From assembly GCA_000146465.1 (NCBI GenBank), contig CP001950.1: a stretch of DNA of 64,000 bases. One strand, 5' to 3'. The notes under the pieces are model-generated. The model ran no database searches. It was given only the letters and a program-made list of their open reading frames with translations, and had not been told where the DNA came from. Position 1 is the first letter of the stretch; each line of letters starts with the position of its first letter. Of this stretch, positions 3,166 through 64,000 are shown piece after piece. The position numbers were made by a program, and so were the translations under genes.

Positions 3166-3513
3166 TCTTTAAGCTGTACTTAATCATCCAACACCCTGAA
3201 TTTGGAACTTCGGAAATATTCCCCCAACCGGTGCCAAATAGAGCAAGAGGTCTTTCTACAAGGAGAGGTGGCAGTCCAGTGGAGGATCTCCTCGAAAACT
3301 ACTTCTGGTTGAGTAGATTCGAGAGTAGCCACTGTTGGTTTGATCCCATCAGACAAAGGGACAGGGTAGATCCTATTTCGTGTGGGCCCTTTGGATGGAA
3401 GGGCCTGGAGAGCAGCGGAGGGCATGTGTTCTCCGGCAATAGAGAGCCCTGGTGAATTCATCGAGTTCCTGAAGCCCCTGATGATCGAAAGTCCTGCAAT
3501 AAAAAAGTTTATT
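3166..3513. repeat. Segmental duplicate (~97% identity, no indels) of 58707-59054; this is the intergenic/promoter region plus the first ~50 codons of the WAC/DDT-like gene
   Basis: Base-by-base alignment with constant offset 55541; about 10 mismatches in 348 nt. Confidence 0.9.
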
Positions 3514-4262
3514 AGATGCATTTGAGACTATGCAGGAAAAGGTAAGTAACTTTGATGACCACATGTGCGATCTGGAAAAGAAGATTAAAGACATCGAAAC
3601 AGCTTTCCAACCCATCCTTCTTTCCAAGGAATCCCACAAAAGATCGTTGCCTGAAGATAGTTTTCTTAAGAACATATATCTTGTGTTGATAATTGTGTTA
3701 TGCATACAGGGTGTTCTCTGGTACACAGACAATGAAAAGTCTTCTGCTGGAACTGTGTGGAACATGGTAGTGTACTCTGTGGCAGTTGTGGGGACGATTC
3801 TGTACATGGCCTGGGTGTGGGGATTTGGCGGAAGGAGATGGACTAGTGTTGCGAGCATGGTACCTATGATGGTTGGATTTCTGAATTTGGGGAAGAGGGT
3901 GAGCTGTGAGTACGGGATGGAGATGGCAGGGCTTGGGTTTATGATGGTTTGTATGGAGAGTCTTGCAAGACACGGGATGTCATCATGGGAGATTTTGGCA
4001 GGATTGATTGGAAATGGAATTGTAGTGATGGGATGGGTCAGTTGGGCTACAATGAGGGATAGATATGGAGAGAGGATGGGCCAGTGGATGTGTGGGGGAC
4101 TTATTGTGTTTGGAATTCTCATGGCTGTGATGATGTATATGAAGGAAGGGAGAAATGTGGAAAGGAGCACTGGAAGTTATATGGTGTTTATTATGACAGT
4201 GGTTGTTGGAACAGCTGTGTCTTATGCATGTGGAGAGGATTACAGACAACTTGCAACTAAGA
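3514..4262. repeat. Segmental duplicate (~98% identity, no indels) of 54803-55551; this is the 3' half (7-TM domain) of the family gene at 54072-55571
   Basis: Alignment with constant offset 51289; about 15 mismatches in 749 nt; homology stops ~50 nt before the stop codons. Confidence 0.9.
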
Positions 4263-4315
4263 GGTTGTTCCAAAGACCTCGGATTGTGGAAAGTAAATGC
4301 CAGAATCCAATTTAA
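3530..4315 (+). pseudogene. Truncated chimeric copy of the coiled-coil/7-TM family gene (TM domain only), fused downstream of the captured Itc1-like promoter/N-terminus; probably a pseudogene or neo-gene
   Basis: The 261 aa ORF begins at an ATG that is internal (FETMQGK) in the full paralogue; no CCC/GGG start context; the captured upstream ATG (~3424) terminates after 33 codons just past the junction. Confidence 0.45.
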
Positions 4316-34488: not shown

Positions 34489-35025
34489 ATGTCAAGGATA
34501 GGGGATAAAAGCCTTGGGCTCGAGAAGAAAATACACAAGGCAGCACTTCTTGAGACAGTTACGGTCTTGAACGATGTTGCCGATGGCAAGAAAAAAAGAA
34601 AGAGCAGAGAGGATACTTCGGTGGCAGAGGTAAGGGAGAAAAAAAATAAGAAGGATACCCGAAAGAAAACCGATAGCCAGGGAATAAGACCCAGTAAGCA
34701 AAAAAGAAATGCAGCTAGAAAGAATGGAGAGATTACAAAGAAGAAAGTGGAGGAAAAGACAAATGAAGACAAAGACTCTACAGAATGCTTGAAAAAGATG
34801 ACAAGGAAAGAAAGAAGACTGGAAAAGCTAAGAAGTAAGGGGAAAGGACTACCTTCGAAAGAATATTTTGAGAAATTTATCAAGAAGTATAAGGATGACT
34901 CTCCACAGGAGAAGGCCACCCGGGGTGTTCTCCCTTCCAAGCGGAAGGAGGACTTCCCCAAAGGAGATGGAAACAAGAGAAAGAAAGGATCCTTCTCCAA
35001 AAAAAGAAAAGGTAGAGATCAGTAA
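34489..35025 (+). CDS. Lysine-rich basic protein (178 aa), nucleolar/ribosome-biogenesis-like composition
   Basis: ATG start; strongly K/R/E-rich; lies between two large minus-strand genes; the antisense frame is an F/L-rich artefact. Confidence 0.4.
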   Translation: MSRIGDKSLGLEKKIHKAALLETVTVLNDVADGKKKRKSREDTSVAEVREKKNKKDTRKKTDSQGIRPSKQKRNAARKNGEITKKKVEEKTNEDKDSTECLKKMTRKERRLEKLRSKGKGLPSKEYFEKFIKKYKDDSPQEKATRGVLPSKRKEDFPKGDGNKRKKGSFSKKRKGRDQ

Positions 35026-36872
35026 AGATCTATCCCTGGAATTAAATCTTTTCTGGGCTTTTTTCTCTCTATTGAAATGGCTTTTGTATGTGACAGCGGT
35101 ATGTCTTGACCGGAATGGAGCTTTACAACAGAGCAGTATATGGACGACACATCTTCGAGTATGCAGACTTCTATTGTTTTTCTTGCTTTGAAATAAATCG
35201 GCGTCTTATCTGAAGACCAGACCTTCAAATGGACGTCTTGGTGATCTTTCTCGAAGAGAAGAGAGGCTGAAAATCTCACAGGCATCCGACCGCAAACCTT
35301 GACTCTTGATGGAACATCCACATCATATTTCAGAAATCTTATGGAGCCAAAGTCCAGGCTTCTTATGTATTCTGCTATGTTTTTAGTGTTGTTAGCCATC
35401 GAGGGATCAAAGCCGGTATTTGCAAAGAGAAACGGGATTCTTTGGAGTATATTGCTTTTCCCTTTACGGAGCAGCTCGGCCATTCCTTTGTAAATATAGT
35501 AGATAAACCAATATCGGTGGTCATTTTCCTTTTTCATACGGCGGAACAGCCTCCTGTAGTTCTTTTCTCTTTGCTCTCCCCCATCCAGCTCCTCAAGAAA
35601 TTGATGAAGGATATCTCTAAAGAAGACATATCCTCCTCCACACCCGTCCGGCTCCGAGCATTCCATGATTTCAAGAAACAGGAAATGGTTCTCAATCACC
35701 TCGCTCATTCTTATTCCTGGGTTGGCTTTCTTCAGCTCCCGGAGAACCACCAGCCTTGCAATATAGAAAGTATCTTCTAGAGAAGACTCGACCTGTGCAA
35801 TGCTTGTATGCTTATAAAATCTATCCATATTTGCAAAGAACAGCTTTCTGTTCCTGGATACAATCTTTCTTATACATCTAAACACATCCCTGGATCTCAC
35901 GTTCACATCCATGTGGGAAACCAGGATGTCGAAGATCTCCACATCCTCGTACTTGAGGTTTGCAAGTAGACTAAGAATGTTTGCCTTGACCTTACTTCTT
36001 CGCTCTTTGAGACTTTCGCAGATCTGTCGGACTATCTCTCGGTCTATGACCAGCGTGTACTTTATGCTCATCTTCTTGAGGCATAGTGTAGAAAGCTCCC
36101 GAAGGTCTCCATCCTCATCGTTTAGTGAATCAACAATGAAGTCGAAGGCTCGGGAAACAATCCCCGGCGTGACCAGAGAGTATACAGAAGAGATTGTATT
36201 CCTACGGACGTCGGAGTATTCATCTTCAACCCCATATATCAGTGCTCCACATAGCTTTTGGTCATCAAGGCTTGTGACTTGCTTGCTCAGGAGTTTTTCG
36301 ACGACCTCATCAGAAAGGTCCTTAAACTCCCCAATTGCCCTGGAGACAAACACCCGTATTGTGAGCTCCCTATCATGTATCCTGTGGCATACAGATCGGA
36401 GAATCTTTATTTTATACTTCTCGTCCTCAGAAAATCTCATTAATTGATGTAAGGCTGCAATCCTAACGTCCGGGTTTTCATCCTCAGCCTGTTTAATCAA
36501 AGAAGAAATCCTTAGGTTCCACCTCTGGCTCAAATAGACTGCCCGGACAGAGTGGTCTGGATCATCTTGGAAAGAAGGCGGAATTATGTCTGGAAAATTT
36601 CTATAATGCAACATCAGTGATATCCTCCTTACCTTGGAATTTCTATGCAAAAGCATTCTGGATATGTCTTCGTATTCAACTTGAGTGCCTCGGCAGAGTG
36701 CATTCTCCAAATACACAATTAGATGATGATCGTTGCACTCGGAGGTGCATTCCGAAGAGTGGTACTTGGATATTGGCTTGGGGCTGCAGTCCTCGAAGTC
36801 TTTGCCAATGGTGTTTAGAATCTTGCACTTCGACGGCTCGTGAAGGTCGAATATCTGCAATCCTGGAAGCAT
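35019..36872 (-). CDS. HEAT-repeat protein (condensin / Integrator-4-like architecture)
   Basis: Repeated D..D..VR.AA/VR.IAL HEAT signatures (DPDHSVRAVY, ENPDVRIAALHQL, SDVRRNTISSVYSL); 617 aa. Confidence 0.45.
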   Translation of the reverse strand: MLPGLQIFDLHEPSKCKILNTIGKDFEDCSPKPISKYHSSECTSECNDHHLIVYLENALCRGTQVEYEDISRMLLHRNSKVRRISLMLHYRNFPDIIPPSFQDDPDHSVRAVYLSQRWNLRISSLIKQAEDENPDVRIAALHQLMRFSEDEKYKIKILRSVCHRIHDRELTIRVFVSRAIGEFKDLSDEVVEKLLSKQVTSLDDQKLCGALIYGVEDEYSDVRRNTISSVYSLVTPGIVSRAFDFIVDSLNDEDGDLRELSTLCLKKMSIKYTLVIDREIVRQICESLKERRSKVKANILSLLANLKYEDVEIFDILVSHMDVNVRSRDVFRCIRKIVSRNRKLFFANMDRFYKHTSIAQVESSLEDTFYIARLVVLRELKKANPGIRMSEVIENHFLFLEIMECSEPDGCGGGYVFFRDILHQFLEELDGGEQREKNYRRLFRRMKKENDHRYWFIYYIYKGMAELLRKGKSNILQRIPFLFANTGFDPSMANNTKNIAEYIRSLDFGSIRFLKYDVDVPSRVKVCGRMPVRFSASLLFEKDHQDVHLKVWSSDKTPIYFKARKTIEVCILEDVSSIYCSVVKLHSGQDIPLSHTKAISIERKKPRKDLIPGIDLY

Positions 36873-36918: not shown

Positions 36919-37920
36919 ATGGACGGACCAAAAAATGTCAGAGATCTTTGCAGAAAAGTGAAGGACGAGCTTTCGTTCAGAAAAGAGGTGAAGGGTATTG
37001 ACTTCGAGAAGGAATGGGACTTCATGGAAATAATAAAGTCTTTTGAAACGACTGGGTTCCAGGGGACAAATCTATACAAGGCAATTGAGGAGATTGAAAG
37101 GATGAGAGGCTCGAAGATATTTTTTGGATGCACCAGCAACATAATCAGCTCTGGACTCAGAGATATTATTGCCACGCTTGTCAAGAGGAAGTATGTCCAT
37201 GTACTTGTGACTACAGGAGGAGGAATAGAGGAGGACTTGATTAAGACATTCAAGCCGACCTTCTGTGGGGATTTCAACCTTAAGGGAAAGGACCTCCGAG
37301 ACAACGGGTTGAACCGAATAGGAAACCTTGTAATCCCAAGTGAAAACTATGAAGACTTCGAGACGTGGCTGAACGAGGTTGTAAACGACATAACCGAGGG
37401 ATATACAAAGGAACATCCAAGAATACTGACGCCATCGTCATTCATAAAAATCCTTGGAGAAAGAATAAATAACGAGTCTTCGGTGCTCTACTGGGCTGCA
37501 AAGAATAACATACCTGTATACTCTCCAGCAGTTACCGATGGATCAATTGGAGATATACTATCATTCCATCCAAGAAGAAATATGCTGAAGCTGGATATTG
37601 TCGAGGATACATATCGGATGAACTGTGAAGCTGTTTTTAATGGGGAAACAGGGGCCATCATACTTGGATGTGGGATTGTTAAGCATCACATCCTCAATGC
37701 TAATCTATTCAAGAACGGGCTTAATTACTGTGTCCTAATCAACAATGCTCAGGAGTTTGATGGAAGTGATGCAGGAGCCAATATAGATGAGGCAGTTAGC
37801 TGGGGAAAGATTAAATCCGAAGCAAAGGGAGTGAAGGTGTTTGGTGATGCAACAATCTTGTTTCCCCTGGTTGTAGCAGCCACATTTATGAAGCAGGACA
37901 AAGCCTGCCCGGAAAGATAA
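36919..37920 (+). CDS. DYS1: Deoxyhypusine synthase
   Basis: Highly conserved DHS motifs (IFFGCTSNIISSGLRD, TTGGGIEED, NRIGNL, GGGIVKHH). Confidence 0.9.
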   Translation: MDGPKNVRDLCRKVKDELSFRKEVKGIDFEKEWDFMEIIKSFETTGFQGTNLYKAIEEIERMRGSKIFFGCTSNIISSGLRDIIATLVKRKYVHVLVTTGGGIEEDLIKTFKPTFCGDFNLKGKDLRDNGLNRIGNLVIPSENYEDFETWLNEVVNDITEGYTKEHPRILTPSSFIKILGERINNESSVLYWAAKNNIPVYSPAVTDGSIGDILSFHPRRNMLKLDIVEDTYRMNCEAVFNGETGAIILGCGIVKHHILNANLFKNGLNYCVLINNAQEFDGSDAGANIDEAVSWGKIKSEAKGVKVFGDATILFPLVVAATFMKQDKACPER

Positions 37921-37942: not shown

Positions 37943-38640
37943 TCAGTCTACTGTGTACTCAAGCCCGAAGCTTTTTCCATATCCACAGAGCTTCATTGAT
38001 GCGTTGTATGCAGCTCCATCAGTTTCGGAGGAATCACCTGTAGATTTCATCCCCACACAATATAGAAAACACTCCATCGACTCTGTCCTGCTTGCTCTTG
38101 GTTTCAGTAGAACCACTCCATTATAGAATCTCCTGAAGTGGTTAATCATCCATTCTGTGTACTTTCCTTGGAGACACTTGCCCACAAATGAAGAGCCTGG
38201 CTTTGAAATCCTCAAGGAAGCGCTAAGTGCAGACATCAGCAACTCTATTTGGAGATACTCATCTATCTCATGGATTCCGGTTATGTCCGGAGCTCCGTCA
38301 CACATTACAAGGTCTGCCAGTACTCCTTCTAGAGCCTCTACTATACTCCGTAAGCACGAGTCTGAAGTTATATCGCCCTTAATGCACACCACACCCTCCA
38401 TCGGGACAATGTCCTGGACATCCACAGACACTATTTTTGGACATCCCTCCTTGGAAAGCAGCCTTTCGGATGCATACTGAGACCAGCTTCCCGGCGCCGC
38501 ACATAGATCAACACACTTTCAACTCCCTCAAACAGATTGTACTCCTCGTCGATATCAATGAGCTTGTACACGCTTCTGGCTCTGTACTTGTTCTTCTTTG
38601 CAAGTCTGTAATAGACGTCTCTTTTTTCTTCTCCATCCAT
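37943..38640 (-). CDS. FtsJ/Trm7-type RNA 2'-O-methyltransferase, interrupted by a 1-nt frameshift (~38513)
   Basis: Piece 1: KRDVYYRLAKKNKYRARSVYKL...LFEGVES. Then only in the -1 frame: CVDLCAAPGSWSQ (SAM-binding motif I) ...IVSVDVQDIV...VCDGAPDITG (piece 2). The two track ORFs 38431-38667 and 37943-38431 are one gene. Confidence 0.6.
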
Positions 38641-38701
38641 TCCCGGGGACAAAAACCACATTGCCATTGCACCTCATACTTTGGGCCAAAAAAGCCCCTA
38701 A

Positions 38702-38941
38702 ATGTTTAGTCTGATGTCTGTTGTGTACGGAGTCCTGTTTCTCTTGAACTCCATAGTTATACTCGACGAAAAGAGATTTCTGTCCAGAGTGGGCCTTCCC
38801 TTATCTCCAGAAGCCAGAGGCATCCTTGGCCCAAGCCGTAAGAAGGTTGTCGACTTGATCAGAGCGATCAAGACCGTAATGAAGATTCCTTTAATAGTGT
38901 TGAATATAATGTGTATAACATACGAGGTATTTCTTGGATAG
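38702..38941 (+). CDS. YOS1: Yos1 / IER3IP1 small ER-Golgi transport membrane protein
   Basis: MFSLMSVVYGVLFLLNSIVILDEKRFLSRVG...KVVDLIRAIKTVMKIPLIVLNIMCITYEVFLG matches Yos1/IER3IP1 along its length; CCCC upstream of ATG. Confidence 0.75.
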   Translation: MFSLMSVVYGVLFLLNSIVILDEKRFLSRVGLPLSPEARGILGPSRKKVVDLIRAIKTVMKIPLIVLNIMCITYEVFLG

Positions 38942-38966: not shown

Positions 38967-39582
38967 TCACAGAGTATCGCTCAGATCATGGCAGTCTATC
39001 TCGAACGAAGCGTCGCCGTCCTTGTCGGATTCCTCGGATACCACTGCATTGTTCCTAAATAAATCATTGGAGTCTAAAGCCTTTTCATTTATCTTGTGGA
39101 TTCTTTGTATCTCTTTGATGTAGTTCTTGTCATAACAGCAGTTTCCCAGTGAGTTTCCGAACTGCCTCAGAGCCCTCTTGAGAGCATCCGTTGCTGCTTC
39201 TTTCTTTGCTTTTTCATATGCAATGGCCTTGGATTTCTGGTTTTCCGAACTCCCAAACCCGATGTCTTCTCTGTATGTTCCATCCTTGAGCATGACCCTA
39301 ACTAGGCAAGATACCCCCAGCCCAATCTTCTTGTCCCCTCCCTCTTCATAATCAATCGTCATGCTCCGTATTTCCGACGACCAGCCGTTGAATCCAAAAA
39401 TCCGGTTTGCCAGGCTTATGGCCATCCAGCCCTCGACATATGCTATCTTCGACATGTTAAACCCAGGCCTGTAGCTGATAAACTCCGGCCCAAGCTTTTG
39501 CCTGAGAAGTTTCGATATCTTCTTTGCTTTCTTCTTACTAAAAGTACCGGGTCTCCAGCTCCTTGGTTCTCCTTCTTGCATA
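38967..39582 (-). CDS. RAD52: Rad52 (N-terminal DNA-annealing domain)
   Basis: LGPEFISYRPGFN...YVEGWMAISLANRIFGFNGWSSEI...FGNSLGNCCYDK conserved Rad52 core; start at MQEGE with GGGG context. Confidence 0.8.
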
Positions 39583-39650
39583 ATACCCCTTAAAGGACTG
39601 CATTTCCGAAACAAGAACAAATAAATATTTCCTTGGTAGGGGTAACAAAA

Positions 39651-40166
39651 ATGGATCCTCTCATGAGTGCGTTCAAAGCAAGAGAAAGTAAAACATTTTA
39701 CAGCCCAATTCCACATAAGTATGAACAGATGTTCAAGCCAAAAAAATATGATCTAGAACACTTCGGACTGACTTTCTTCCAACGTGCAGTATGCTTCTCT
39801 GCATGCCTTGGGGCCGGGATTCTTTCGTTCCTCTACAGCATGATCAAGATAGTCCGCCTCTCTCCATCTGGGTTCATTCTTCCATACACAATCTCAAACT
39901 TTCTGTTCTTCATTATGTTTGGGTTTCTGCTTGGCTTCAGATCCTATCTCGAAGGCTTGTTCTCTAAGAAGAAGCGCATCCACAGCTCATGGTTTATTGG
40001 CTGTACACTTCTGACCCTCTATGTTGTCTTGAAATACGACAGATACCTCCTCAACTTAGTATTCTGCTTCGTCCAAGTGACGTCGTTCATCATGTTCTCC
40101 TTGACCTTCATTCCCGGAGGAACCTCGGGTATGTCCTCCATGGTCAATATGTTCTTCAAGAAATAA
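39651..40166 (+). CDS. SFT2/Got1-family vesicle transport membrane protein
   Basis: Four TM helices; SFT2-like topology and size; ATG at MDPLMSAF. Confidence 0.5.
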   Translation: MDPLMSAFKARESKTFYSPIPHKYEQMFKPKKYDLEHFGLTFFQRAVCFSACLGAGILSFLYSMIKIVRLSPSGFILPYTISNFLFFIMFGFLLGFRSYLEGLFSKKKRIHSSWFIGCTLLTLYVVLKYDRYLLNLVFCFVQVTSFIMFSLTFIPGGTSGMSSMVNMFFKK

Positions 40167-44840: not shown

Positions 44841-45992
44841 TTAATGGACTTCGGCGACTGTTTCTGCCTTCTTTGCTCCGTAGAATGCCTTCTTCTCTGC
44901 ACTTGTCTGGAACCGCCCATGTCCTATCTTCGACGATGTGTCGACAAACTTGATCACAAGCTCCTCGCTCGGCCTCTGCTGTGTAAGACTCTTTCGAAGC
45001 GTCACAACCCTCTTCCGTGGCCCGACAACCGCCCCCTTCACCATGATGAAGTCGTTCTTCACTTCTCCATAGTGAGGGAATCCTCCCATCGGCGAAATCG
45101 CCTTCTCGGTTAGGTCAAACTCAGTCTTGATCTTGGTGCTTCCATTTCCAATCATGTACACCCTCTTGTTCTTCTCTGTTCTTCTATGGAACCCCATCTG
45201 CCCTGCTCGTGCAACAGAGTACATCACACGGCTCGGATGCCATGCTCCAATGCATGCAACCTTTCGGATCCCCTTTCGAGACTTGCGCGGCTGCTTTCGT
45301 ACTCCAAACCTCTTCACTGTTCCTTGGAATCCCTTTCCCTTCGTCACCCCAATCACATCGATGTTCTCATTCTCTCCAAACACCTCTGCAATCTGGATCT
45401 CCTTCTCAAGCCTCTCCAGAGCCCACTCAACCTTCTCGCAGATGCTTCCTCCATTCAACTGTATCTCCGCGATGTGTGCTTTCTTCAGCCCAAGTGTCTT
45501 CACCATCTCCGGCTGTGTCTGAACAAGTACTCGCACACACTCTGCCCTCTTCTTGATCTCTTCAACCCGGGACTCCGTCACTTCTCCTCGGCAGAACTGG
45601 GCCGCCGCCTCCTTCTCCATGTACTTGTTACCAAACATCCTGCGGAGAACTCCATCGTTCACATAGGATACCGTGACAATCGGGAGTCTGTGCAGTCCAG
45701 TCACAGTCCTCTCATATCCCACAATCCCATACACAACCATCGGCGGTGCTTCAACCACAGTCACTGCATCCATCACCTCCCTAGAAAGTTGCTTGTTCTT
45801 TGCAACCTGGGTCTTAGTCCTTATCACATGTGTCATCCCTGCCTTGTACCCCATAAATCCAGTCAGATGCACAGGCTGGGAGATATCGTCAGCCGGAAAC
45901 GCCCCTACAGACGGCCTGATTGTCTTCGATCTTTTCCTTGGGCAGAACTGCAAAGATCCATGTCTCGGTGCGTTGAACTTCCTGCAGCTCAT
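44841..45992 (-). CDS. RPL3: 60S ribosomal protein L3
   Basis: [22 protein letters not shown]-terminus and conservation throughout (W..GHG..); start at the MSCRKF ATG. Confidence 0.95.
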
Positions 45993-53909: not shown

Positions 53910-54071
53910 GGGGTATTCCCATCGAGCCTTCTTCTCCAGACACTGATATTTAGTCTGTCTGTCTTTTCTATCTAATAAAGTGTTTTTATTAAACTCTATA
54001 GCTGTTCTCGCCAAGCATATTCTATTTATAGAAACCAATTCTTTATATAATCTAAGCCGTTGTTTGTACAG

Positions 54072-55571
54072 ATGGAAAACACAAGATGGATAAAAGCTGA
54101 AATTAAAAATGTAAACGATGGCTCTGTAGCCAGAGAAGTCTTGGCCAACGAGACAAATTCCTTTGTCAGAGAACTCAATCACTATGAAAAAAATCTTAAG
54201 GATATTCTTGAAGAACTAGAGAATCAAAACATAACTAACAAGGAAGAAGGAATTTCGTCCGTTAAGAAAGCCTTGGAGGTGTTAGAAACTCTTGAAAAAG
54301 ATGTCAGCTCAGCAGTTCCTGAAGAGACATCTATTTGGACGAAAGACTTTTTCAAAGCTGTTGATAGACTAAGAGATAGTTGTAATCTATCACTCAAGTC
54401 ACTTGAGGAGGCTCTTGAAAAATTTCTGGCCTATATTGATAATAACTCGGATCTAAAGGGAGATCTTTTGCAGAAGGCCAAGCTCATTCCCCTTCTGTGT
54501 GCATCTAGCAAGCTTAAAGAATTTTCTTCGGGTATAAGGAAGTCGGGGACCAATGCCTTTACGTGGTTTTTTAAGTTTGTTAGAAGGATTCCCGTCGAGA
54601 ATTTCAAGAAGAACATTAACTCGAGCTTAAATGGCCTAAAGGAAAAGATTTGCCGTGTATCTGGATCCCAAAGAGCAACAGGGAAGCAAGAAATCCGGGA
54701 GGCACAGAAGATTGTGGATTCTTTTTTACGCGATGTAACCGAACTTCAGGATGAATATGAGAAAACTCTTGGCCTTCTTATAAGATCGGAGATATCCTTT
54801 TCAGATGCATTTGAGACTATGCAGGGAAAGATAAGTAACTTTGATGGCCACATGAGTGATCTGGAAAAGAAGATTAAAGACATCGAAACAGCTTTCCAAC
54901 CCATCCTTCTTTCCAAGGAATCCCACGAAAGATCGTTGCCTGAAGATAGTTTTCTTAAGAACATATATCTTGTGTTGATAATTGTGTTATGCATACAGGG
55001 TGTTCTCTGGTACACAGACAATGAAAAGTCTTCTGCTGGAACTGTGTGGAACATGGTAGTGTACTCTGTGGCAGTTGTGGGGACGATTCTGTACATGGCC
55101 TGGGTGTGGGGATTTGGCGGAAGGAGATGGACTAGTGCTGCGAGCATGGTACCTATGATGGTTGGGCTTCTGAATTTGGGGAAGAGGGTGAGCTGTGAGT
55201 ACGGGATGGAGATGGCAGGGCTTGGGTTTGTAATGGTTTGTATGGAGAGTCTTGCAAGACACGGGATGTCATCATGGGAGATTTTGGCAGGATTGATCGG
55301 AAATGGAATTGTAGTGATGGGATGGGTCAGTTGGGCTACAATGAGGGATAGATATGGAGAGAGGATGAGCCAGTGGATGTGTGGGGGACTTATTGTGTTT
55401 GGAATTCTCATGGCTGTGATGATGTATATGAAGGAAGGGAGAAATGTGGAAAGGAGCACTGGAAGTTATATGGTGTTTATTATGACAGTGGTTGTTGGAA
55501 CAGCTGTGTCTTATGCATGTGGAAAGGATTACAGACAACTTGCATCTAAGAGAATGTCTCTGAAATCTTGA
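54072..55571 (+). CDS. Lineage-specific coiled-coil + 7-TM membrane protein (full-length member of the duplicated family)
   Basis: ~250 aa heptad-rich N-domain then 7 predicted TM helices; paralogous to 63410-> (N-domain) and 3530-4315 (TM domain, 98% nt identity). Confidence 0.6.
   Translation: MENTRWIKAEIKNVNDGSVAREVLANETNSFVRELNHYEKNLKDILEELENQNITNKEEGISSVKKALEVLETLEKDVSSAVPEETSIWTKDFFKAVDRLRDSCNLSLKSLEEALEKFLAYIDNNSDLKGDLLQKAKLIPLLCASSKLKEFSSGIRKSGTNAFTWFFKFVRRIPVENFKKNINSSLNGLKEKICRVSGSQRATGKQEIREAQKIVDSFLRDVTELQDEYEKTLGLLIRSEISFSDAFETMQGKISNFDGHMSDLEKKIKDIETAFQPILLSKESHERSLPEDSFLKNIYLVLIIVLCIQGVLWYTDNEKSSAGTVWNMVVYSVAVVGTILYMAWVWGFGGRRWTSAASMVPMMVGLLNLGKRVSCEYGMEMAGLGFVMVCMESLARHGMSSWEILAGLIGNGIVVMGWVSWATMRDRYGERMSQWMCGGLIVFGILMAVMMYMKEGRNVERSTGSYMVFIMTVVVGTAVSYACGKDYRQLASKRMSLKS
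54803..55551. repeat. Source/partner copy of the 3514-4262 duplication
   Basis: 98% identity, colinear. Confidence 0.9.
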
Positions 55572-58683: not shown

Positions 58684-58706
58684 CTTCTAGTCCTTCTATT
58701 CTATAG

Positions 58707-59054
58707 TCTTTAAGCTGTACTTAATCATCCAACACCCCGAATTTGGAACTTCGGAAATATTCTCCCAACCGGTGCCAAATAGAACAAGAGGTCTTTCTAC
58801 AAGGAGAGGTGGCAGTCCAGTGGAGGATCTCCTCGAAAACTACTTCTAGTTGGGTAGATTCGAGAGTAGCCATTGTTGGCTTGATCCCACCAGACAAAGG
58901 GGCAGGGTAGATCCTATTTCGTGTGGGCCCTTTGGATGGAAGGGCCTGGAGAGCAGCGGAGGGCATGTGTTCTCCGGCAATAGAGGGCCCTGGTGAATTC
59001 ATCGAGTTCCTGAAGCCCCTGATGATTGAAAGTCCTGCAATAAAAAAGTTTATT
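58707..59054. repeat. Source/partner copy of the 3166-3513 duplication (promoter + 5' end of the Itc1-like gene)
   Basis: 97% identity, colinear. Confidence 0.9.
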
Positions 59055-60545
59055 GTTAATTACTTTATTGAACACAGCCAAGAGAACATTGATGATATAG
59101 CAGCCAGGATCGACGGATGTCTTCGGAAGAGGTTTGTGGAGAACGAGGTGGTGTCTGTTGTAAGGTCTGGGGAGTGGGGAAGGATTTCTCGAGTGGCTGG
59201 AGACAGGTATGTTGTAAGCATCCTGTCTCTAGATGGAGGGCGAGAGGAAAGGCTCCACTTTTCGGAGCTTGCAAGGAAGGACATGGCGGGGCGGACGGAG
59301 GTCAAGGGATATCTGCTTGGGATAACAATGGAAACTCCTTTTGGACGGGTGCTGAAGGAGAATGCATTCCGAAGCATAAGAGACTCTGGGGAAGTGATGA
59401 AATGCAAGGTTCCACAGAGCCAGTGCTATGAAGGGAGTTTTGTGTCTCGGAGGGGTGTTGGGGGGACGGAGAGAAGGAAATGGAAGACGGAGAAGGAAGG
59501 GCAAGGCTCGAGAGAGAAGAACGAGGAAAGGGAGACAGAGGGCAGTAGGGCGAAGCGGGCCTCCGTGCGAAAGGAGGGGACGAAGGAGACGAGTGTGAGT
59601 TCGATCCTCTTGGTGGGGCCTTCGCAGGCTCTGGAGATCCCGGGGCTTAGGAAGGAAGATATCGAGCTAGTGATGAAGATCTTTGGAGTGGTAGCAAACT
59701 TCGGGGGGTTTTTTGGGATCCAAGAGATTGATGTTTTGTCGCTAGGGAGGGCTATTGTTGATCCTTGGTATGAGGATGATACGATATGCAAGATCCATTT
59801 GAAGCTGATCTCTGGACTTCGGACAGAAATGGATTCTGTGGGGATGGAGGAGTTTGTGGAGAACAGCAAGGCATGCATTGAATGGGCCAAGGAGCAAGGA
59901 AGGGAGGAGGATTTGGCTGGAGATGGGGGGGAGATGGAGGAGTGTCTTGAACAGTCTCTGGGCTGTGGGGAAGAGGGCTGGAAGAAAGACCTAAGGAAGC
60001 TTATTGAGAGTATTTGCGATGATGGGGACACAGACATTTTTGGTATTGTGAGGAGCATCTCTGGAAGGAGCAGGGCTCTTGGGAGGGGAGAGATAAGAAA
60101 GAGGCTTGTTGTGATTGAGCTGCTGATGAACATGTTCTTTACAACAGAACAGTTCCGAGAGATTATATGGGAGAAGATGGAGGAGTCGAAGGATCTTGAG
60201 AAGAAGAAGAGGGAGCTCCAGACAAGGCTTAAGAGGAGTGTGGGATGGGATGGAGAGAGCAAGGAGGCAGGAGAAGGCTCTCGAGCCGAGATGGAGAAGG
60301 AGCTTGGGGACACAAGAGAGAAGATATTCCAGCTTCCTGTGAATACTGGGGTTGGAACTGTGGATGGGGTTGGGCTTCTTCATCTTGGGAGGAAGATCTA
60401 TGCAGCCTGGGAAGGAGACTACTATTTGGTGGGGAGAGACAGGCTGGCAGATCTATGTAAGAAATATAAGGCAAAGAACAAAGAGGAGAGACATGTGCTG
60501 GAAAGCATAGGACAGAACATAGAAGGGTTGAAAGGCCATCTTTGA
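58965..60545 (+). CDS. WAC/DDT-domain protein (Itc1/ACF1-like ISWI accessory subunit; tentative)
   Basis: N-terminus resembles a WAC domain (..DDIAARIDGCLRKRFVENEVVSV..RISRV..YVVSI..) and DIELVMKIFGVVANFGGFFGI....LGRAIVDPW a DDT/WHIM-like helix block; GGG before the ATG at 58965 (track start 58923 is GTG). Confidence 0.45.
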   Translation: MCSPAIEGPGEFIEFLKPLMIESPAIKKFIVNYFIEHSQENIDDIAARIDGCLRKRFVENEVVSVVRSGEWGRISRVAGDRYVVSILSLDGGREERLHFSELARKDMAGRTEVKGYLLGITMETPFGRVLKENAFRSIRDSGEVMKCKVPQSQCYEGSFVSRRGVGGTERRKWKTEKEGQGSREKNEERETEGSRAKRASVRKEGTKETSVSSILLVGPSQALEIPGLRKEDIELVMKIFGVVANFGGFFGIQEIDVLSLGRAIVDPWYEDDTICKIHLKLISGLRTEMDSVGMEEFVENSKACIEWAKEQGREEDLAGDGGEMEECLEQSLGCGEEGWKKDLRKLIESICDDGDTDIFGIVRSISGRSRALGRGEIRKRLVVIELLMNMFFTTEQFREIIWEKMEESKDLEKKKRELQTRLKRSVGWDGESKEAGEGSRAEMEKELGDTREKIFQLPVNTGVGTVDGVGLLHLGRKIYAAWEGDYYLVGRDRLADLCKKYKAKNKEERHVLESIGQNIEGLKGHL

Positions 60546-60567
60546 CTGTCTGTTTGTTTATGATGTA

Positions 60568-62010
60568 TTGGAAGGGGTTTTATCTGTGAGTAAACAACCA
60601 ATACAAATGGAAAGGCAGAGATTTACAAACCTGCTGAAGGATGGAGAGAGAGGGATTCCTCCGGAGTACAGCATGAGCTTGGGGAAACACTCTGTGACTG
60701 TGCGGAACCTAAAGAAAAAGTATCTTATAAACAAGATTACATTGCTAGACATCTACAACTACTACAGAACCCCGTTATCGGTATACACATCACAGAAGAT
60801 CAGGAACATGTTCGTAACGGCATCTCTGTGTCTTACTGTGTATCTGGCATCGAACATAGATTCAATCAGAAGCAACAAGATTCCGAGGCTTGGAGTAAAC
60901 TTCTCGTCTGCAGCCCTGGTTATTGGCGGGGTGTTTGTTGGCAGGGAGGCGATTTCGTATGCGATCAACTTCAGGAAGATGGTGTCTATATTCTACATGT
61001 ACAGATACATTCTGGAGAGAGACATGGAGGAGATCCGGTTCAAGGATGTTGTGTCGGGGATGATCAAGCTGGAAAGAGAGGTGCACAACAGAGACCTGGA
61101 GGAGAAGGATGTGCGGGACATTGTGAACCATAACAGGCTACTCCTTCTGTTGATGATGAGGAAGTTTCCTTCGATATTCCGGCCGGCATGTTCCAGGTTC
61201 CTGCTGCACATCCTCCATGGCTACATCCACAGAATAGAAGAGGGCCCTGTGGAAGAGCTGGGAGACGAGATCCGGGTGGTTTCGATTGGAATCTTCATAT
61301 TGTCCCCGGCGATTTCGATCTTCTTTATTCTGTACTACATTGCAAAGATCATAGAAAAGTCCCAGAGCAATATGTTCTATGTGTTCAAGAAGTCCCACAG
61401 GCCGTGGTTCAAGTACATGATGGCCAAAAGAAACGAGTATCCACACGAAACACACAGGAAGATACAGAAGGGAGCTGGATATCTAAACGGATTTTTTCTT
61501 TCAAGAAAGAGAGACTGCATCCCAAGGGTCTGCTCTGGGATCTCGTTTCTTCTGAGCTGTCTTGTGTTTCTGGTTGGATATCTTATTCTGAGCATCTTGG
61601 TTGCATCCAAGCCAAACCTGAGCCAGAGCCTTTCCCAGGATATAACTGTCTTTGGGAGGACAACAAACATAGTGTATCTCTCGTACCTCATGGGGGGAAT
61701 ATCCTGCTGCCTGAGATGTCTCAGCATCGAGTATGGGGTTTCGAACCGTCGAAAGATGTTTGCCAAGTGGTGTGTGCTGATGGAGCAGACGGAGGTGCTG
61801 AAGTACTGTGGAAGGCGGGGATCCCTTGAGGCGATTATGTCGAAGATCTTTGTTCCGCGTATATATTTATTTCTTGTAGAGATAGTGTCTCCATTTATTG
61901 TTCCTTTCCAGTTGGAAGGAATGAGAAGGAGGTTGGAGAGGATCCGGCAGGAGTTTGAATCTGTGGGGGAGGGGGAGTACGACAGGCGGGTCTCGATCCT
62001 TGATCTATGA
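60568..62010 (+). CDS. Multi-pass membrane protein of unknown function (faint, unverified similarity to the Atg9 core)
   Basis: 480 aa; ≥6 hydrophobic segments; DLEEKDVRDIVNHNRLLLLLMMRKF loosely recalls the Atg9 TELDIYHRILRFKNYMVA segment. Confidence 0.45.
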   Translation: MEGVLSVSKQPIQMERQRFTNLLKDGERGIPPEYSMSLGKHSVTVRNLKKKYLINKITLLDIYNYYRTPLSVYTSQKIRNMFVTASLCLTVYLASNIDSIRSNKIPRLGVNFSSAALVIGGVFVGREAISYAINFRKMVSIFYMYRYILERDMEEIRFKDVVSGMIKLEREVHNRDLEEKDVRDIVNHNRLLLLLMMRKFPSIFRPACSRFLLHILHGYIHRIEEGPVEELGDEIRVVSIGIFILSPAISIFFILYYIAKIIEKSQSNMFYVFKKSHRPWFKYMMAKRNEYPHETHRKIQKGAGYLNGFFLSRKRDCIPRVCSGISFLLSCLVFLVGYLILSILVASKPNLSQSLSQDITVFGRTTNIVYLSYLMGGISCCLRCLSIEYGVSNRRKMFAKWCVLMEQTEVLKYCGRRGSLEAIMSKIFVPRIYLFLVEIVSPFIVPFQLEGMRRRLERIRQEFESVGEGEYDRRVSILDL

Positions 62011-62037
62011 CGGGAGGAAACACGGCATGGATCATAT

Positions 62038-63102
62038 TCACAGATTGATTTCTTTGTGGGGTTCCAGAACACCCAGGTCTCGGAGCTTGTCGCTCACCAC
62101 AGATGCCTTGACAACATACTTACTTCCAAATCTTCTTACAAGCTCTCCGAGATCTTTACAGCGAAGAAGCTCTTTTTCAAGTTCCCCCAAAAGCTCTTCG
62201 GGAAATACTTCGCGCTCTACTAGTGGAAGAGAAATCCAGGAGGAGCAGAATGACGGAAATATAGTAAACTTACAGGAAGGAAATCCAAGACATGGCTTCC
62301 GACATGTTCTAGATGGCTCCATCCTTTCCGAATCCAACTCTATCCATTCACAACTACTTTCTTCCTCCGAAGATTCCTCTTCTGTGCTTTCAATAACTTC
62401 TGCATCCTCGCAATCTTCCCAATCAGAATCTTCCTCGTAGTCTAAAACTTGTGGAAGCCTTGTAAGGCTGTTTTTCACATAATGTTTCTGTCCTCCAAAT
62501 CCATAGAGAGGTGGCCTAAGCTGGTTGGAAAATTTGATGAAGGATAATCTTCTTGGATCTTGAATGTCTTTTCTTATGCGTATTGTGGAACTGAGAGGAC
62601 TCGAAGGCATGCTGACTGCTGTCTCCTTGTCGAAGCATATTGGGGAAAATAGTCCAAGCATATCCGCCGAAGGCTTCTTTATGCCTTCTACCTGAATAAA
62701 TCTCAGCATACCAGAAGTGTTTGCTTCTTCTTTTTCTGTATCTCTCTCCAAGCCAGAAATCCCTTTATCTTTAGCTTTTTTCTTTCTCGCTCTCTTCAAT
62801 AGGCTTCGAACACCTTTAGAGATTCCATCAAGGCTCTTAAGAAAGTATATATTTCCCTCTCCACTTACTTCCACATCGAAATTGGACTCAACAGCCTTCT
62901 TCAGACTATTTACTCTGTCTTTTCTCCTCTTCGACGTTTTTTTATACGAATATAGGATTTTGTCCATCCAATAGTAGTCCACCTTCTGCTTCCCTTCTAC
63001 TAGGAGAGCTATAAGATCTAGAGGAACCTCTTCTTCTCGTCCTCTCTTCCACTCATGCAGAATCTTTAGCACTTCCGGATGGAATAAAACATCCGTAATC
63101 AT
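62038..63102 (-). CDS. Acidic (D/E/S-rich) protein of unknown function
   Basis: Start at the MITDVLFHPEV ATG (track start is non-ATG); long acidic tract EEDSDWEDCEDAEVIESTEEESSEEESS. Confidence 0.4.
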   Translation of the reverse strand: MITDVLFHPEVLKILHEWKRGREEEVPLDLIALLVEGKQKVDYYWMDKILYSYKKTSKRRKDRVNSLKKAVESNFDVEVSGEGNIYFLKSLDGISKGVRSLLKRARKKKAKDKGISGLERDTEKEEANTSGMLRFIQVEGIKKPSADMLGLFSPICFDKETAVSMPSSPLSSTIRIRKDIQDPRRLSFIKFSNQLRPPLYGFGGQKHYVKNSLTRLPQVLDYEEDSDWEDCEDAEVIESTEEESSEEESSCEWIELDSERMEPSRTCRKPCLGFPSCKFTIFPSFCSSWISLPLVEREVFPEELLGELEKELLRCKDLGELVRRFGSKYVVKASVVSDKLRDLGVLEPHKEINL

Positions 63103-63409
63103 AAAAAGGATAAGAATAAAACAATATAAAGATATTGGGAAGATACAATGGCAATATGTTCTTTCTACCAAATACTTCCCATCATACCCACAGTTTCATG
63201 GGGATTATATGAAGGATACCCTGGCTCTTCCCCTTCTTTAGACAAGAATAAGCATCCAACTAAAAGCCCCTCTTCAAGTTCCGGCCCCTTTAAAGCCAAA
63301 CCGCCAAGGATGTTTTTACTAAACAGTTGTCCACTATTCTTATGATTCCCCTTCTAATTGGCCAATTATAGTGAGGACTCCCACATACGCTCCAATAGCA
63401 GTGCCCTTA

Positions 63410-64000
63410 ATGAATCATATCAACCGTATCCGAGATATACTCATCAACCTTGATTCACAAAGCTCTCTTCATGAAGAAACAGTTGCAGAATGTGCATTGG
63501 TATATTATTATAATGCTGTAAGTAAGTTTCTGAATGGAATCCTCTTCTATGAGGAGAAGTTAAATGAAGTCTTGGAGTCTTTGAACAACAAGCTCAATTC
63601 ACAGAGTGAAAAGGGAATTAACGCGGTCAAAGAAACTCTGGACACACTTCGTAGGCTTAAGGAGACAATACAACCTAAAATCGAATGTCCTTTTAACCAA
63701 CTTTCTCATCCTCCAGAACTAACAAATATTGAAATCCTCGAGTACAACTTCAAAACTTTTGAAGAGTACTTCAAAGCAATCGATAGAATGGTTTCTTCGG
63801 AAGGACAGATTCCATTTGAAGAGTTCAAGGATGCACTCAGGAATGTCTTGCCATATGTCGATTATCCACTGACCCACAGTACAGGATCCCATTCTATTGT
63901 TCTCAAAAACGTATTTCTTCAACTCTTGGGGGAGTATAATGTCTCTGCTGTATTTGAAAATACCTGTCTCAATAAGTATTATGAAAACTTAAGAATAATA
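63410..64000 (+). CDS. Second member of the coiled-coil/7-TM family, 5' part; the ORF runs off the 3' edge of the window (absent from the ORF track because it has no stop in the window)
   Basis: ATG at 63410 with CCC context. YEEKLNEVLESLNNKLNSQSEKGINAVKETLDTLRRLKETI aligns with B1's YEKNLKDILEELENQNITNKEEGISSVKKALEVLETLEKDV. Open frame to nt 64000. Confidence 0.55.
   Translation, partial: MNHINRIRDILINLDSQSSLHEETVAECALVYYYNAVSKFLNGILFYEEKLNEVLESLNNKLNSQSEKGINAVKETLDTLRRLKETIQPKIECPFNQLSHPPELTNIEILEYNFKTFEEYFKAIDRMVSSEGQIPFEEFKDALRNVLPYVDYPLTHSTGSHSIVLKNVFLQLLGEYNVSAVFENTCLNKYYENLRII

Follow-up and report, generated by a model that had tools for sequence, protein, structure and literature searches.

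The locus described here raises the question of whether a conserved RNA methyltransferase gene is truly interrupted in Encephalitozoon intestinalis, or whether the interruption belongs to one record of its genome. The window, that is, the whole 64,000-nucleotide stretch of DNA that was analysed, is part of chromosome IX of E. intestinalis ATCC 50506 (NC_014423:64001-128000; GCA_000146465.1), and in it the coding sequence of a predicted Trm7/FTSJ1-type methyltransferase is spread over two reading frames. An earlier note on this DNA had proposed three explanations: an assembly or sequencing indel, a very recent inactivating mutation, or a site of ribosomal or transcriptional slippage. The anomaly itself was already on record. 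MicroAnnot Table S2 (2024) tags the Trm7 locus, at NC_014423 101943-102640, as 'frameshift, sequence error or pseudogene', one of 11 such entries for the 2010 E. intestinalis assembly (PMC10815200), and adding 64000 to window positions gives its coordinates for Trm7, for the 240-nt gene next to it (102702-102941 = 38702-38941) and for several other genes. The placement of the window rests on these published coordinates and on exact protein matches to ADM12215.1-ADM12217.1 of ATCC 50506. That single label spans three categories without choosing among them, and the comparison with other assemblies presented below points to sequence error.

Read on the minus strand, the 0-frame translation from an ATG at either 38667 or 38640 runs to ...YKLIDIDEEYNLFEGVESVLIYVRRREAGLSMHPKGCFPRRDVQK and then meets a TAG codon at 38431-38433 (Table 1). 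The ORF opened by the ATG at 38640 begins MDGEEKRDVYYRLAKKNKYRARSVYKLIDIDEEYNLFEGVES... and becomes unrelated sequence past ...GVES, and starting instead at the upstream in-frame ATG at 38667 lengthens the 0-frame ORF to 78 aa. In the -1 frame, a TGA at 38519-38521 closes the frame immediately upstream of the second piece, after which the translation reads KCVDLCAAPGSWSQYASERLLSKEGCPKIVSVDVQ... (KCVDLCAAPGSWSQYASERLLSKEGCPKIVSVDVQD...) and remains open until the stop at 37943-37945. Against the Pfam FtsJ profile (PF01728), the 0-frame piece matched positions 1-22 only, and the -1-frame piece matched positions 25-180 of 181 (E = 9.7e-40). Since the two pieces match adjacent parts of FtsJ, the break falls exactly between parts of one domain, and a domain match split across two frames in this manner is no chance pattern. 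Repair of a single base produced a protein that matched positions 1-180 of 181 (E = 1.8e-48; 165.3 bits versus a cut-off of 24.1). This full-length match bears out the Trm7/FtsJ identity given in the earlier note, and the translations and Pfam pieces together confirm what it had described as a single-nucleotide frameshift with motif I present only in the -1 frame. The gene measures 698 nt in the window, versus 699 nt (232 aa and a stop) in all other assemblies. The coding sequence annotated in the 2010 record begins at the internal Met of MEGVV... and covers FtsJ positions 65-180 only, without motif I and the first catalytic Lys.

Table 1. Features discussed in the text, in window coordinates.
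Feature	Position	Strand	Details
Trm7/FTSJ1-type tRNA (Cm32/Nm34) 2'-O-methyltransferase gene (predicted)	37943..38640	-	Pfam FtsJ and Table S2
0-frame N-terminal piece	38431..38640	-	69 aa from MDGEE; premature TAG 38431-38433
-1-frame piece	37943..38518	-	191 codons; motif I and remaining methyltransferase domain
SAM-binding motif I coding sequence, VDLCAAPGSWSQ	38477..38512	-	-1-frame translation
1-nt deletion site	38512..38513	-	single gap in pairwise alignments
Truncated 152-aa CDS, 'tRNA methyltransferase'	37943..38401	-	ADM12217.1 / XP_003073577.1; exact-sequence look-up
HEAT/condensin-like protein	35019-36872	-	intact; exact match ADM12215.1 (Eint_090860)
Deoxyhypusine synthase	36919-37920	+	intact; exact match ADM12216.1
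Yos1-like gene, 79 aa	38702-38941	+	between Trm7 and Rad52
Rad52	38967-39716	-	intact
RPL3 (ribosomal protein L3)	44841-45992	-	SNPs 45458, 45471, 45670
DUF1686-family paralogue	54060-55571	+	~98% identical to the copy at 3514-4263
DUF1686-family paralogue	3514-4263		~98% identical to the copy at 54060-55571

The start of the gene is annotated in more than one way. At 38641-38667 on the minus strand, two in-frame ATGs (MAMWFLSPG...) precede the conserved MDGEE start; the Logan gene call uses the second of these upstream ATGs (239 aa), and curated annotations use MDGEE (232 aa). The MDGEE start agrees with the N-termini of orthologues, and the true start of Trm7 is likely the ATG at 38640.

We located the missing base by aligning the window with other sequences of the locus. 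The frame changes at 38512/38513, one codon ahead of the motif VDLCAAPGSWSQ, and the base absent between 38513 and 38512 is a coding-strand T of GTT GTT (A on the plus strand). The window allele reads GAAAGTG-TGTTGATC, and every sequence spanning the site reads GAAAGTGTTGTTGATC, one T more, so that the site context is GTGTTGTTG in the intact allele and GTGTGTTG in the deletion allele. The alignments thus confirm that one coding-strand T is missing at about 38513, as had been suspected. The restored sequence ESCVDLCAAPG offered with that suggestion is not what the other assemblies encode: the restored codons are GAA AGT GTT GTT GAT (E S V V D), giving ESVVDLCAAPG, and VVDLCAAPG is found in all Encephalitozoon and Ordospora orthologues exactly as in the restored sequence. 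Because the lesion lies in the Val codon directly before VDLCAAPG, it falls at the start of motif I and not in its middle; the frameshift had therefore been placed correctly at the SAM-binding motif, but it does not lie inside it.

For these comparisons, we used DNA of ATCC 50651 (JBLUPL010000020.1; L001 and L003), the same-strain telomere-to-telomere (T2T) re-assembly of ATCC 50506 (GCA_024399295.1, CP075166.1; L006, L008 and L010) and Logan-assembled contigs from run ERR13302946 (L002 and L005), the last of these solely as an independent read set. The DNA fragments of ATCC 50603 and ATCC 50507 (L007 and L009) stop short of the gene, and these two isolates were compared as proteins. A single gap was present at the site in the alignments to L001 and L003 (ATCC 50651), L002 and L004 (ERR13302946) and L008 (T2T). 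In CP075166.1 the additional T lies at L008 position 19138, within an intact 699-nt FtsJ gene encoding 232 aa, and ATCC 50507 and ATCC 50603 encode exactly the intact 232-aa protein. The repaired protein was 100% identical to this 232-aa protein (P0001), an annotated product of four other E. intestinalis assemblies (UTX46025.1, KAL7345044.1, KAL7346990.1 and KAL7348939.1 by exact-sequence look-up), and 71-74% identical to the orthologues of E. romaleae, E. hellem and E. cuniculi.

The remainder of the Trm7 gene was 100% identical to the other sequences, with zero further differences across the gene, in agreement with the earlier view that it is otherwise intact. The missing T was the sole indel in 21,002 bp compared with ATCC 50651 and in 20,387 bp compared with the T2T assembly, and across those 20,387 bp it was also the only difference between window and T2T outside multi-copy genes; the other T2T differences were substitutions in the apparently duplicated RPL3, in the DUF1686 family and in a 3.4-kb DUF5097-ATG9 repeat. 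Five independent sources (T2T, ATCC 50507, ATCC 50603, ATCC 50651 and ERR13302946) contradict the window, so that the difference is private to one assembly with several data sets against it, as is characteristic of an artefact. A pseudogene would be marked by a lesion reproducible in the same strain and by further decay, and neither was found: CP075166.1, from ATCC 50506, is intact, and 0 other differences from the intact alleles were counted in the gene or in its flanks. The earlier note had itself proposed comparison with related isolates and had stated that reads consistently showing an extra T would reduce the case to an ordinary intact gene, which is effectively what this comparison returned.

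The intact allele was also compared with known structures. In a PDB search, residues 4-198 aligned with human FTSJ1 (8y2o_B; E = 2e-60, 207 bits) and residues 3-200 with yeast Trm7 (6jp6_B; E = 4.5e-46, 160 bits). Paralogues scored lower, at ~110 bits for FTSJ3/Spb1 and ~96 bits for MRM2, and the encoded protein, as judged from its sequence, is closer to Trm7/FTSJ1 than to the Spb1/FTSJ3 or Mrm2/FTSJ2 paralogues. Motif I (V/I-DL-G/C-AAPG-G/S-W) reads VVDLCAAPGSWSQ in the intact allele and occurs in the window only in the -1 frame; it is conserved among the orthologues of our protein alignment (A2), in human FTSJ1 and in yeast Trm7, and is exact across Encephalitozoon and Ordospora. K26, D115, K155 and E190 occupy nearly invariant columns of the same alignment, with identical residues in FTSJ1 and Trm7, and from knowledge of RrmJ/FtsJ enzymes we presume them to be the K-D-K-E catalytic tetrad. 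At 232 aa the microsporidian Trm7 is shorter than the human and yeast enzymes, whose C-terminal extension is absent from it, and unlike their genes, the gene in the window record is split by a 1-nt deletion. The intact protein is a typical, short Trm7/FTSJ1 orthologue, predicted to act as a tRNA 2'-O-methyltransferase.

The neighbours of the gene had been described as intact, and deoxyhypusine synthase, Rad52 and the HEAT/condensin-like protein are indeed all whole. Across the 64-kb window, protein-coding genes lie wall to wall on the two strands, separated by very short spacers, and the GC content is 40-46%; ARAGORN found no tRNA genes in it, and an Rfam scan of the full 64 kb gave no family at or above its gathering score. 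The longest Rad52 ORF encodes 249 aa, newer annotations give 204 aa, and the 249-aa form is absent from the protein collection, a start-site ambiguity that is typical of the E. intestinalis genome. The Yos1-like gene has no 2010 annotation, is called in newer assemblies and is given the label 'unpredicted gene' by MicroAnnot Table S2 (PMC10815200).

We next considered how the base came to be absent from this record. For the 2010 genome, 31-bp paired reads from half a GAIIx lane were assembled with Velvet (hash 19) at 40x into 137 scaffolds, which were finished by PCR, cloning and Sanger sequencing to validate breaks within scaffolds and to link scaffolds (PMC4355639). The genome produced in 2023 from the same ATCC strain drew on Illumina, Nanopore and PacBio data (PMC10158259), and ATCC 50507, 50603 and 50651 were assembled with SPAdes from 151-bp Illumina reads at 303-361x (PMC12697097). 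A one-base disagreement that is private to the oldest, shortest-read assembly, and that stands against five data sets, is explained most simply by an error in the consensus or in finishing. We therefore consider it very probable that the frameshift is a one-base consensus error of the 2010 short-read assembly, and that the organism possesses an intact, ordinary Trm7 of 232 aa, with no recoding, slippage or inactivation at this site. Of the three explanations offered earlier, the assembly or sequencing indel is thus the one supported, by the presence of the T in the T2T sequence of the same strain, in three isolates and in ERR13302946.

From the disagreement with the other data sets, we infer that the base would have been lost during assembly or finishing. 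The combination of 31-bp reads, a Velvet k of 19, 40x coverage and patching by PCR, cloning and Sanger sequencing could have led to the T being dropped. A GC-rich stretch, GCGGCGCCGGG, lies ~12 nt downstream, in a genome of ~42% GC, and we speculate that this very GC-rich stretch may have caused a local drop in coverage or a contig break that was then patched. There are counterpoints: Illumina consensus at 40x seldom gives indels outside homopolymers, and the site context GTGTTGTTG is only a weak repeat.

Other signs of error in the same stretch of the 2010 assembly count in favour of an artefact. Relative to T2T, the window is without 5,206 bp at 3513|3514 (L010 4843-10048), which comprise part of a DUF1686 gene, a CAF1A-like gene, ATG9 and DUF5097. 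Corresponding material is found at window 58706-64000, 99.83% identical to L010 5103-10397, where it is joined to sequence flanking the second copy of the repeat; at this locus T2T has the second copy of the 3.4-kb DUF5097-ATG9 repeat with other genes beyond it, and no match to L006 1-5674 of T2T was found in the window. At the first repeat copy, contig L011 of ATCC 50651 is arranged as in T2T. This 5.2-kb discrepancy, at 3513|3514 and 58706-64000, probably arose when the short reads of 2010 were mis-joined through the repeat during assembly.

Smaller discrepancies occur in multi-copy genes. RPL3 shows three differences from T2T and two from ATCC 50651 (45471 and 45670), one of which gives A108V relative to the ATCC 50651 copy. 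The V108 protein is found only in the 2010 record (ADM12226.1), and the A108 protein is common to the other assemblies and to a second 2010 RPL3 entry, ADM11254.1. Since A108 is also present in that second entry, RPL3 appears to be duplicated, and the private SNPs may reflect either confusion between paralogues or genuine differences between copies. The DUF1686 gene at 54060-55571 differs from T2T by substitutions at 54855, 55232 and 55298, and at 54855 from ATCC 50507 as well.

The alternative that survives best is that the culture or DNA sequenced in 2010 truly carried a Trm7-inactivating 1-nt deletion that is absent from the later ATCC stock. Such a deletion could have been fixed in the laboratory stock, or could have been carried by one allele only, or by a nuclear sub-population, in a parasite that is diploid or polyploid. 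The ATCC 50506 DNA sequenced in 2010 was grown separately from that of 2023, and because the two came from different laboratory cultures a stock-specific mutation could account for the difference. Trm7 is not known to be essential in yeast, where its loss causes slow growth only, and a null allele could therefore persist in culture. The deletion, moreover, lies outside a homopolymer, the context in which Illumina-type errors are most expected. Against these points, re-sequencing of the same strain on three platforms gave an intact gene, the other isolates and the independent run ERR13302946 likewise have it intact, and the gene is conserved across microsporidia. It shows no other disabling or silent change, and the further private discrepancies of the 2010 assembly resemble assembly problems. 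The decaying folate-pathway genes of E. romaleae are genuine Encephalitozoon frameshift pseudogenes, and the Trm7 locus resembles them in that a frameshift disrupts the gene of a conserved enzyme within a compact microsporidian genome. True pseudogenes, however, are found again in independent sequencing and usually have more lesions, whereas the Trm7 lesion occurs in one assembly and in an otherwise identical gene. With the same-strain re-assembly intact, the very recent inactivating mutation suggested earlier finds no support here, and we regard it as unlikely. Were it true, Trm7, an otherwise universally retained anticodon-loop methyltransferase, would be dispensable for a minimal-genome microsporidian in cell culture.

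It is far less probable still that the GT/T-rich site allows Trm7 to be expressed through -1 ribosomal frameshifting or transcriptional slippage, even though both halves are perfectly preserved apart from the break and the shift needed is -1. A productive shift would be confined to the ~6 nt AAGTGT (38513-38518) between the -1-frame TGA and the VDLCAAPG codons, and neither a slippery heptamer of the form X XXY YYZ nor a homopolymer is present in AAGTGT or the surrounding GTTGAAAGTGTGTTG, where the longest run is AAA. The 101 nt downstream gave no indication of a stimulatory RNA structure (MFE -26.4 kcal/mol versus a shuffle mean of -28.3; z = +0.59). The frameshift is also not conserved, the gene being in frame in T2T of the same strain, in three isolates and in all orthologues; with the protein in one frame throughout, there is nothing to recode. 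Programmed frameshifting and slippage, the third of the earlier proposals, were therefore rejected: motif and structure are both missing, and CP075166.1 is in frame.

Equally hard to credit is the converse, that the window is correct and the other assemblies contain a spurious T from polishing or annotation-guided correction. T2T is based on long reads, which are indel-prone, but three Illumina-only SPAdes isolates and an unrelated Logan assembly independently agree with it and the extra T restores a universally conserved motif; we excluded such an error on the mutual independence of these assemblies and on the restoration of the motif. A spliceosomal intron was rejected because a base is missing rather than sequence added, and the intact allele is collinear.

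If the frameshift is, as these comparisons suggest, a consensus error of the 2010 assembly, its significance lies mainly in data quality and it brings no biological novelty. For the Trm7 locus, users of NC_014423 would be better served by the T2T sequence CP075166.1 and its protein UTX46025.1. The 2010 RefSeq/GenBank record still holds the truncated 152-aa product without the SAM-binding motif, and this record could mislead comparisons of gene content and essentiality among the smallest eukaryotic genomes.
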